This document shows, in pieces, positions 30,588-32,105 of a stretch of 64,000 nt of DNA. The notes under the pieces are model-generated. The model was not told where the DNA came from and searched no databases. It was given only the letters and a program-made list of their open reading frames with translations. Origin of the DNA: Escherichia coli (GTDB lineage: Bacteria; Pseudomonadota; Gammaproteobacteria; Enterobacterales; Enterobacteriaceae); assembly GCF_003334305.1 (NCBI RefSeq), contig NZ_QOWS01000008.1; one strand, given 5' to 3'. Both the position numbers and the translations under genes were made by a program. The stretch's first letter is position 1, and every line of letters starts with the position of its first letter.

Positions 30588-32105
30588 TTAAGGTAGCGTC
30601 TTATACATCGGGACATAACCTACATCTTCCACCAAACTCTGTCCCTGCGGCGTTAAAAACCACTCCAACAATTTTTGTGTCTCTGACGTCGTATTTTCCC
30701 GCGTTACCATAAAGGCATCGACGATATAGGGATATTTGCCGTTGCGAATGTTTTCGGCAGTCGGTGCAATACCGTTAATCGCTAGCAGTTTTATATTTTT
30801 ATCGTCGTTCATTTGTGTTGCGTAATAACGGAAGGTGTAACCTATTGCGTTGTTTGTATTACGGTATTCGGCAACGACTTTAATCATTCCCTCCATCATA
30901 CTTGCCACTTCTGTTTCCTGCGGCGAGATCATGCGGACATTTTTCATGACCTGGGATTGCATCACCGTCTGGCTACCAGAGTCTTCCGGGCGTTGCCAGG
31001 TCTGGATCTCCTGATCGTTACCGCCAACCGTGCGCCAGTTGGTAATTGCACCACTGAAGATGTCACGCACTTGTTGTTCGGTCAGGGAATTAACCGGGTT
31101 ATCTGCATTGACGATGAAAACAAACGCTTCACGGGCAAAAGGCGTGTAAATCAAAGTGACGCCCGATTCCTCCGCGCGTTTTTTCTGCCCACCGGAAGGT
31201 TGAGCCACAAAGATAATATCGGCATTACCTTTAACAATCTTGTTATATGCTTCGGGAGTACGAGAGTTCGCCAGATATTCCCATTCGTGAAAATCTTCCG
31301 GCAAAACGCTTAGTGCATAAAAGGCAGAGGCATAAATGGGGTACGCCGCCGTTGCGCCATCAAGTCGCGGCCAGTTTTGCGTGAACTGAATTTGCGGTTT
31401 ACCACGCAGTGGTGTCAGTTGATTATTGAGTTTATCGGGTCGCCAGGCCCAGGTATCAATATTTTCACGCACACCGACGCCGGGATTAAGCTGTTTATAT
31501 AAATAAGCCTGGTAACCGGCGACAAAACCAAGCATGAGAAGGATAAACAAGAGAGAATTACGGCAACGTAACCCGGACGTGCCCGTTAAAGGATATCTGG
31601 TCGGCCAGCCGTACCCCAGCGAAAAACTGATATGCGCGCCAACAGGTATAATGACTAACCACCAGTACTCACCACCGACTAATGAGGCTAACAAAACGCC
31701 CAGCCAGGGGAGCATAAGATCAGCCAACCAACCCGCTCCCATCTGGCGAAATTGATAATCTGCCAGATGCAGCGCGATTATCCAGACCCCCAGGGTTAAT
31801 AATGCGGGTACTAAAAAAAGACATTGTCGCCAGACGGCTATTTCTCTTTTTTCTGGTGCACTATCGTCCGCCCACACTCGCCCCGAGAAAAATAGCATTA
31901 ATGCGCCCAGCGCCAGCATAAAAATGTTGAGCAGAAGGTAAATTGTTGGCGTGATAAAGATATTACAAACTTCAATAATACCGGCAAGTCCGACACCCAG
32001 CATGGCAATAACCGCCGCCAAAAACTGCGCCAGAATGGGGATGCCGAAAAAAGTCATTACCAGCGAGGTCAAAATCCATTTTCTGTTTTGCATTATTCTT
32101 TCCAT
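30588..32105 (-). CDS. Hypothetical fusion protein (505 aa): N-terminal polytopic membrane domain (~7 TM) plus C-terminal PstS/PBP-like-2 type substrate-binding domain
   Basis: N-terminal ~220 aa are strongly hydrophobic. The C-terminal ~280 aa carry motifs typical of phosphate-binding-protein-like domains (GATAAYPIYASAFYA; IFSGAITNWRTVGGNDQEIQTWQRPEDSGS; IGYTFRYY). A second ATG at 32093 has the better Shine-Dalgarno (GGAAAG) and may be the true start. Confidence 0.6.
   Translation of the reverse strand: MERIMQNRKWILTSLVMTFFGIPILAQFLAAVIAMLGVGLAGIIEVCNIFITPTIYLLLNIFMLALGALMLFFSGRVWADDSAPEKREIAVWRQCLFLVPALLTLGVWIIALHLADYQFRQMGAGWLADLMLPWLGVLLASLVGGEYWWLVIIPVGAHISFSLGYGWPTRYPLTGTSGLRCRNSLLFILLMLGFVAGYQAYLYKQLNPGVGVRENIDTWAWRPDKLNNQLTPLRGKPQIQFTQNWPRLDGATAAYPIYASAFYALSVLPEDFHEWEYLANSRTPEAYNKIVKGNADIIFVAQPSGGQKKRAEESGVTLIYTPFAREAFVFIVNADNPVNSLTEQQVRDIFSGAITNWRTVGGNDQEIQTWQRPEDSGSQTVMQSQVMKNVRMISPQETEVASMMEGMIKVVAEYRNTNNAIGYTFRYYATQMNDDKNIKLLAINGIAPTAENIRNGKYPYIVDAFMVTRENTTSETQKLLEWFLTPQGQSLVEDVGYVPMYKTLP

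Follow-up and report, generated by a model that had tools for sequence, protein, structure and literature searches.

A PstS-fold domain on an unclassified polytopic membrane domain in Escherichia coli represents a broad, uncharacterised subfamily encoded apart from ABC importers

What does a substrate-binding domain of the PstS type do when it is held permanently on a polytopic membrane protein? The question is raised by a minus-strand gene at 30588..32093 of a 64,000-nucleotide (nt) stretch of Escherichia coli DNA (contig NZ_QOWS01000008.1 of assembly GCF_003334305.1; hereafter the window, meaning the whole stretch that was analysed). We find that the gene encodes an inner-membrane protein in which a PstS-fold domain is joined to a novel polytopic domain. 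The protein is under selection, belongs to a broad uncharacterised subfamily and is not encoded together with an ATP-binding cassette (ABC) importer. We tentatively read it as a tethered oxyanion receptor that would act through membrane partners.

The open reading frame (ORF) at 30588..32105 was confirmed; it codes for 505 residues when counted from its first ATG (32105), and a second in-frame ATG is present at 32093. The original prediction had pointed out both ATGs and left the choice between them open. The RefSeq entry produced by the Prokaryotic Genome Annotation Pipeline (WP_122985426.1, 502 residues) starts at an ATA (32096), a non-canonical start codon that has in-frame ATGs 3 nt downstream and 9 nt upstream. 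The second ATG (32093) is the best-supported start, since it coincides with the N-termini (MKNxKW...) of the Klebsiella and Salmonella homologues. It yields a 501-residue protein, and residue numbers throughout count from it. Apart from the ORF, the RefSeq entry and the homologue N-termini, this definition of the complete gene draws on the selection data and on the K-12 remnant yzgL, both described below. The encoded protein comprises an N-terminal polytopic membrane domain (residues 1-205; 31479..32093, minus strand), a linker between the last membrane helix and the binding domain (206-240; 31374..31478, minus strand), and a PstS-like binding domain (241-501 plus stop; 30588..31373, minus strand).

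The C-terminal half has the PBP_like_2/PstS (type II periplasmic binding) fold. Pfam assigned residues 250-485 to PBP_like_2 (PF12849) with E=3.7e-30, and sequence searches matched the solved PstS structures 4q8r and 4gd5 at E values of about 1e-18 for the protein alone and about 1e-26 with the family profile. At the structure level, Foldseek returned 9l8j, 1twy, 4gd5 and 4q8r with E values from 1e-14 to 4e-16, the target-normalised TM-score among the best matches being at most 0.79. Together with the AlphaFold2 model described below, these matches bear out the initial claim that a PstS-type domain is tethered to a polytopic membrane domain. The score against the NCBIfam model TIGR02136 is 122.7 bits, which does not reach the curated cut-off of 206.6; a subfamily member from Lysinibacillus also remains under it (137.1 bits). 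Signature motifs of the binding domain are GATAxYP, SRTP, FVAQPS, QRPxDSGSQ and GYTFRYY.

The predicted ligand site was analysed by aligning 60 family sequences with phosphate-bound Clostridium PstS (4q8r/4gd5) and with E. coli PstS. The alignment with the latter began after the N-terminal motifs, and the equivalences of Thr10 and Ser38 were derived from a hidden Markov model alignment to 4q8r combined with offset counting. On this basis, Thr248 of the G-A-T-A motif corresponds to PstS Thr10, and Thr279 of S-R-T-P, a helix N-cap, to Ser38 (each conserved in 59 of 60 sequences). Within the Q-R-P-E-D-S-G-S-Q motif, Arg368, Ser372, Gly373 and Ser374 match PstS Arg135, Ser139, Gly140 and Thr141 (59-60 of 60), and Glu370 matches Asp137 (35 of 60). 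The motifs GATAAYPIY and RPEDSGS that had first drawn attention to the domain are real; their counterparts in E. coli PstS are the phosphate-binding motifs of Thr10 and of Arg135/Ser139-Gly140-Thr141. The position of PstS Asp56 is taken by Ala297 of the A-Q-P-S motif (56 of 60), so that the aspartate is lost; Ser300 in the same segment is invariant. In PstS, Asp56 is the hydrogen-bond acceptor from protonated phosphate. Of the phosphate ligands of E. coli PstS (Thr10, the Phe11 NH, Ser38, Asp56, Arg135, Ser139, Gly140 and Thr141), most thus have a kept equivalent while that of Asp56 is lost, and the predicted pocket is very probably an oxyanion or phosphoryl site that may select its ligand differently from PstS.

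The N-terminal 205 residues are strongly hydrophobic and gave no Pfam match. AlphaFold2, run with 35-60 homologues, modelled the full-length protein with a predicted local distance difference test (pLDDT) score of 88.3 and a predicted template modelling (pTM) score of 0.75. The membrane domain alone reached 92.7 and 0.89, respectively, and the linker has a lower pLDDT of 65-83. Helices span residues 2-42, 49-77, 83-110, 120-126 together with 128-140 (separated by a kink at the conserved Pro129), 145-165 and 173-202. In a Foldseek search of AFDB50, the membrane domain matched members of its own family only, some of them from Bacillota, and its profile retrieved just 164 of 1.84 billion representative proteins at E<=1e-3. 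Among the 150 listed, 80 carry a PstS-like domain downstream, 24 are stand-alone proteins (170-260 residues), 44 do not reach 170 residues and are likely to be fragments, and 2 are longer but lack the binding domain. The membrane domain thus defines a small family that has not been classified, and among the 150 listed representatives the PstS-like domain is its sole fusion partner. In Pfam, profile and structure searches, it showed no similarity to a known permease or transporter family. Its only invariant residues are Pro19, Trp104 and Gln195; a polar residue in helix 5 is semi-conserved. The linker, delimited from the alignments, carries a family-wide motif, Y/W-x-P ... L-T-P-L ... P-R-L-D.

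Both halves of the protein also occur as separate genes at the same chromosomal site. In the window, the last gene of the four-gene block that contains the binding-protein gene (a 201-residue ORF at 28484..29089, minus strand) is a stand-alone paralogue of the N-terminal membrane domain. The two align by hhalign with 97.3% probability (E=2.7e-11, 173 collinear columns), and the membrane-domain profile matches the representative of the 201-residue ORF family (P0169) at E=1.5e-5 among the 1.84 billion proteins. The relationship is visible to profile methods only, as a BLASTP comparison of the membrane domain with this ORF was not significant. The ORF is restricted to Escherichia, and its alleles have a ratio of nonsynonymous to synonymous substitution rates (dN/dS) of 0.25 despite differing in about 35% of the protein. 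In O157-type E. coli, the full-length gene is followed by a 330-residue lipoprotein paralogue of the binding domain (57% identity over residues 224-501), which replaces the 236- and 255-residue ORFs of the window, and then by a 200-residue membrane protein, the counterpart of the 201-residue ORF. One locus can thus contain the fused form alongside its two halves as independent genes, which speaks for joint action of the two domains.

Membrane topology was assessed by the positive-inside rule, counting lysine and arginine residues (K+R) per loop in 60 homologues. Mean counts are 2.0 for the N-terminus, 0.6 for loop 1, 3.3 for loop 2, 0.8 for loop 3, 0.05 for the turn at 141-144 and 4.25 for loop 5. 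By this pattern, the N-terminus and loops 2 and 5 are cytoplasmic and loops 1 and 3 periplasmic, so that the last helix would run from inside to outside and the binding domain would be periplasmic. Among 81 subfamily proteins, the 15 residues preceding the last membrane helix contain 3.9 K+R, compared with 1.6 after it. Members from Bacillales have a simple three-helix anchor with the N-terminus inside and the C-terminus outside; of the short paralogues, one has a lipoprotein signal with the lipobox LLAGC (MNKFTGVLLLGTALLAGC...) and another a single signal anchor. Judged from these sequence features, the binding domain most likely faces the periplasm. An odd topology leaves 9.6 K+R inside and 1.4 outside, whereas an even one distributes them almost evenly (about 5.4 inside and 5.6 outside). 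This charge pattern would require region 120-165 to cross the membrane only once, with the 13-residue helix 128-140 re-entrant or interfacial. The model shows six hydrophobic helices, and about five net crossings would satisfy the charge bias. An odd number of crossings, an inside N-terminus and a periplasmic domain had all been proposed in the original prediction, and they agree with the charge bias and with the lipoprotein paralogues; the accompanying count of about seven helices does not hold.

The fusion had been regarded as unusual, yet it proved to be the usual arrangement in a large subfamily. When one genome per species was scanned, at least 552 related loci emerged across many phyla; the subfamily occurs in Enterobacterales, other Proteobacteria, Bacillota, Actinomycetota, Synergistota, Spirochaetota and others. 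Gene context was analysed for the best 79 loci, and 81 full-length members were examined. Three or more hydrophobic segments are present in 71 of the 81, and the number of N-terminal segments is nearly always 3-6. The domain with 5-6 helices is found in Proteobacteria, Actinomycetota and some Bacillota, and an anchor of 3-4 helices in Bacillales, Pasteurella and Cardiobacterium. The window protein shares the multi-helix anchor, the conserved linker and the PstS-like domain with its signature motifs (QRPxDSGSQ). A gene 50-55% identical to it occupies the same place between glgP and glpD in Klebsiella oxytoca and in Salmonella enterica subsp. salamae. Several genomes carry multiple subfamily copies, in tandem or nearby: Sporosarcina, Arthrobacter and Klebsiella spallanzanii (L092 5842-7107 and 8988-10148; L099 5713-6873 and 7129-8292; L032 5902-9041). 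Local duplication therefore appears to be recurrent, as in O157-type E. coli. A literature search on yzgL, the glpD-glgP region, PF12849/PBP_like_2 and phosphate-binding proteins fused to polytopic domains returned no functional study.

Clustering of 792 ORFs from the 79 loci revealed no family-wide neighbour. The surroundings are unrelated for distant homologues in Leclercia and Budviciaceae and for a second copy in Salmonella, which lies between ruvC and ruvA. In Leclercia (L018/L019 8625-9449), genes for a polyphosphate kinase 2 (PPK2) and a CcdB-type toxin pair come after the homologue; we treated this arrangement, with its phosphate theme, as coincidental. In a scan that took in a single ORF on each side of the gene (143 flanking ORFs from the 79 loci), neither BPD_transp_1 (PstC/PstA) nor ABC_tran (PstB) was among the 20 most frequent Pfam families. 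The window's own block of four genes contains no pstC, pstA or pstB, and a simple consensus test found no match to the Pho box CTGTCATAWAWCTGTCAY within 3 mismatches anywhere in the window. The absence of Pst families among those returned for the flanking ORFs, the lack of a Pho box and the TIGR02136 score below the cut-off are all in line with the earlier suggestion that the protein is not a classical ABC binding protein.

The reading we prefer, with a probability of roughly 40%, is that of a tethered oxyanion receptor acting through membrane partners, its PstS-type domain being periplasmic. The binding domain would capture a phosphate-type tetrahedral oxyanion or a phosphoryl group, which is the predicted ligand, and its selectivity would probably be unlike that of PstS, Asp56 being replaced. 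Closure of the domain upon ligand binding would be read at the membrane surface, either by the protein's own membrane domain or by a partner membrane protein. The protein would thus work much as binding proteins do that serve sensor kinases as co-receptors, instead of handing a ligand to a dedicated ABC importer. Since the protein has no cytoplasmic output domain, any signal must go via a partner. Precedents exist in binding-protein/kinase and PstS/chemoreceptor pairs, including PstS-CtpL and XylFII-LytS (PMC8050422). HisKA kinases make up 6 of the 143 flanking ORFs, mostly from one clade. In four Paenibacillus species, the gene of a complete 5TMR-LYT histidine kinase runs 4 nt into the start of the homologue, and a fifth species has a kinase fragment at this place. 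In one such locus (L054 4646-7113; the others are L062, L072, L076 and L081), a 430-residue 5TMR-LYT/HisKA kinase overlaps the 392-residue homologue by these 4 nt. The arrangement suggests a binding-protein/kinase sensor pair of the XylFII-LytS kind, and it is the only direct hint of signalling. No sensor kinase adjoins the gene in the window or in the enterobacterial loci.

A number of observations weigh against the receptor reading. Taken at face value, six long AlphaFold2 helices and an inside N-terminus would leave the binding domain in the cytoplasm; a re-entrant or interfacial position of helix 120-140 (or 128-140) is an assumption that a periplasmic domain requires. Hardly any polar residue is conserved inside the membrane, and a shorter anchor of 3-4 helices replaces the domain in Bacillales, so the membrane domain may be little more than an anchor. 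A kinase is adjacent in only about 6 of the 79 loci, mostly in one clade, and no partner is known in E. coli. Stand-alone membrane-domain genes of other taxa (P0224, P0280) do not adjoin binding-protein genes, and for this reason the argument from fused and split forms is confined to Escherichia. Finally, in about 38% of complete E. coli genomes, K-12 included, less than 80% of the gene's DNA was matched; as these genomes are without most of the gene, it is dispensable.

Among the alternatives, the one that survives best, unlikely as we consider it, is a tethered auxiliary PstS, which would bind phosphate and pass it to PstCAB or to another distantly encoded importer, the membrane domain serving as a mere tether. 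The nearest solved structures are all phosphate-binding proteins of Pst systems, and most phosphate-ligand positions are kept. Moreover, anchors are interchangeable over the subfamily, from a lipid through one or 3-4 to 5-6 transmembrane helices, as would suit a simple tether. However, no Pst permease or ATPase family is among those returned for the flanking ORFs of the 79 loci, and the missing Pho box in the window, the sub-threshold TIGR02136 score and the loss of the Asp56 equivalent all speak against a function within the Pst system. A conserved and confidently folded membrane domain that has a stand-alone paralogue also exceeds what a tether needs.

A bolder idea, which we hold to be less likely still, is that of a self-contained envelope device that works without an ABC transporter from E. 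coli to Bacillota and Actinomycetota, either as a gated conduit or as a receptor for lipid-linked phosphoryl head-groups. If so, the separate lipoprotein-type binding-domain gene and membrane-domain gene of O157-type strains would represent its two-component form.

It seems to us doubtful that the membrane domain is itself a small channel or secondary transporter of a new kind, which the attached binding domain would supply or gate, the whole forming a new binding-protein-dependent uptake system. The exclusive pairing of this domain with this binding domain and the coexistence of fused and split versions at one locus are consistent with it, as are the confident, conserved fold, the invariant Pro19, Trp104 and Gln195 and the semi-conserved polar residue of helix 5. 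Nevertheless, the domain resembles no transporter family and has hardly any conserved polar or charged residues within the membrane. It is also absent from Bacillales members, which have 3-4 unrelated helices instead, and its stand-alone copies elsewhere are unlinked to binding proteins.

It is more doubtful again that the protein, on the outer side of the cytoplasmic membrane, recognises an envelope molecule carrying phosphate instead of free phosphate and has a role in envelope homeostasis; the candidate ligands would be undecaprenyl (pyro)phosphate, lipid-linked precursors, an anionic phospholipid or polymer phosphate. The pocket would lie near the membrane on a short conserved linker, the loss of the Asp56 equivalent would suit an esterified phosphate, and the family is found in both diderm and monoderm bacteria. 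The promoter of the K-12 remnant yzgL has been listed as Cpx-responsive, with two-fold lower expression (-2.0) upon Cpx activation (PMC2731931), the sole expression datum found. On the other hand, the proposal is purely inferential, and no envelope-biosynthesis genes were seen among the neighbours.

We regard as very improbable an even topology, in which six true crossings and an inside N-terminus would leave a cytoplasmic PstS-like domain that senses an intracellular phosphorylated metabolite. It would take the six long hydrophobic AlphaFold2 helices as they stand, but the loop richest in lysine and arginine (4.25 per 16 residues) would then lie outside and the charge bias would be gone; besides, the three-helix Bacillales members are unambiguously N-in/C-out, and the paralogues are lipoproteins.

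The distribution of the gene within E. coli and the selection acting on it bear on whether it is functional at all. Of 5426 complete E. coli genomes, 3348 (about 62%) carry at least 80% of its DNA, always on the chromosome. The window itself is chromosomal, and its segment 28400-32250 is 100% identical to E. coli strain H15. In K-12-type strains, the deletion extends down to glpD and spares only some 74 codons at the 5' end, which persist as the pseudogene yzgL (b3427); the equivalent 5' piece lies at 31872-32096 of the window (minus strand) and at 3004-3225 of L002. The K-12 pseudogene shares with the window gene both the locus and these first codons, yzgL being the truncated remnant and the window gene the intact ancestral form. 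In some E. coli strains, IS1 interrupts the gene. In a comparison with the divergent O157-type allele (window 30588-32093 versus L016 5986-7491), dN/dS is 0.118 overall and is lower in the binding domain (0.08) than in the membrane part (0.17). With this ratio and with its presence in 3348 of 5426 genomes, the gene is not a chance ORF. The synonymous divergence (dS) of 0.456 far exceeds that of glgP (0.047, about 10-fold lower) and of glpD (0.172, 2.6-fold lower), which, combined with the dN/dS value, indicates alleles that are old or imported lineages under purifying selection; the high dS points to ancient allelic lineages or to import from other Escherichia clades. A mobile element was considered and rejected, as tblastn searches of phage and plasmid collections gave only ordinary PstS genes or mislabelled chromosomes. 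That this is a decaying or functionless accessory gene of a recombination hotspot is scarcely credible: the genomes in which less than 80% of its DNA was matched (about 38%), the yzgL stump, the IS1 interruptions and the low G+C content would fit, but not the purifying selection between very old alleles (dN/dS 0.118 at dS 0.456), the Klebsiella and Salmonella genes of 50-55% identity at this locus, or the broad family.

The locus itself is ordered glpG-glpE, then glpD on the plus strand, followed on the minus strand by the 201-, 255- and 236-residue ORFs, the binding-protein gene, glgP, glgA and glgC. Gaps of 15, 2 and 2 nt separate the four minus-strand ORFs between glpD and glgP, which therefore form one block; its G+C content is 42-48%, compared with 50-57% in the flanks. 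In the intergenic region between the glgP stop and the gene (32094..32220, minus strand), glgP is followed by a hairpin with a T-run (about 32177-32204), and a perfect TATAAT lies at 32123-32128, where it lacks a good -35 element. Both were read by eye and are tentative, and the scan tool listed neither. A promoter with TATAAT but without a recognisable -35 may be activator-dependent. The glp-glg gap has independently been named a structural hotspot of E. coli, "Hotspot A" (PMC13185298, a 2026 paper). Alternative contents of the glpD-glgP gap (28433-32220; L014-L017) are the O157-type short lipoprotein gene with the membrane-only gene, or IS1 insertions; in other E. coli, a chaperone-usher fimbrial operon occupies the place of the binding-protein gene.

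The 236-residue ORF (29862..30572, minus strand) lies directly downstream of the binding-protein gene, after the 15-nt gap, and its product looks cytoplasmic. Pfam gave no match for it; towards its C-terminus lies a C-x4-C-x2-C-x2-C motif, and its N-terminal part weakly resembles the YbbD model. The binding-protein homologues of K. oxytoca and S. enterica subsp. salamae are followed by 234-residue ORFs (in L009 and L013) that are 54-56% identical to it, and in these loci a YbbD_head lipoprotein-like ORF comes next. The 255-residue ORF (29092..29859, minus strand; taken from the ORF list) is placed between the 236- and 201-residue ORFs with 2-nt gaps on either side. Pfam returned nothing for it even at E<=10, and a deletion in one E. 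coli record (P0121) has fused it to the 201-residue membrane ORF. A polymorphic toxin/immunity function, to which weak YbbD-like and DUF4279 matches downstream had pointed, was dropped for the binding protein, whose C-terminus is conserved and not polymorphic; it may still apply to the 236- and 255-residue ORFs. A defence system was likewise rejected, as none of the four proteins gave a PADLOC match even at E<=1.

Current annotation calls thousands of such proteins "phosphate ABC transporter substrate-binding protein". Since, on the present evidence, they are not components of transporter operons and carry an unclassified membrane domain, this name is probably misleading. The gene has never been studied because K-12 holds only the yzgL stump, whereas about 62% of complete E. 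coli genomes have most of it, among them that of the O157-type pathogen examined. Once defined, its ligand and partner would amount to a new bacterial way to perceive or handle phosphate-type anions at the membrane and would give a function to a domain family.

With PstS of the PstSCAB importer, the window protein shares the two-lobe fold and the anion-binding motifs, namely GAT at the first strand-helix turn, the Ser/Thr N-cap and R-x-x-x-S-G-S/T. Unlike PstS, it has no cleavable signal peptide and carries the 205-residue polytopic domain instead. It differs further in the lack of pstCAB beside the gene in the 79 loci, judged by the most frequent Pfam families of the flanking ORFs, the lack of a Pho box, the replaced Asp56 equivalent, the TIGR02136 score under the cut-off, and a family signature of its own (QRPxDSGSQ, AREAFVF, GYTFRYY). 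Substrate-binding domains fused or tethered to transporters occur in ABC permease fusions of the OpuA/GlnPQ type, and ones anchored by a transmembrane helix or a lipid in Gram-positive bacteria and archaea. The likeness to all of these is that the binding domain is held covalently at the membrane; however, the membrane part of the window protein is not an ABC permease, and no ATPase or permease partner was found nearby. LuxP-LuxQ, TorT-TorS, XylFII-LytS, HptA-HptS and PstS-CtpL (PMC8050422) share with it an extracytoplasmic binding protein that is not, or not only, a transport component. Those co-receptors are soluble or lipid-anchored and have a defined partner, whereas the window protein has its own polytopic domain and, in E. 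coli and most taxa, no adjacent sensor gene. In one Paenibacillus clade, the homologue is translationally coupled to a kinase of the LytS type (5TMR-LYT), much as XylFII pairs with LytS.

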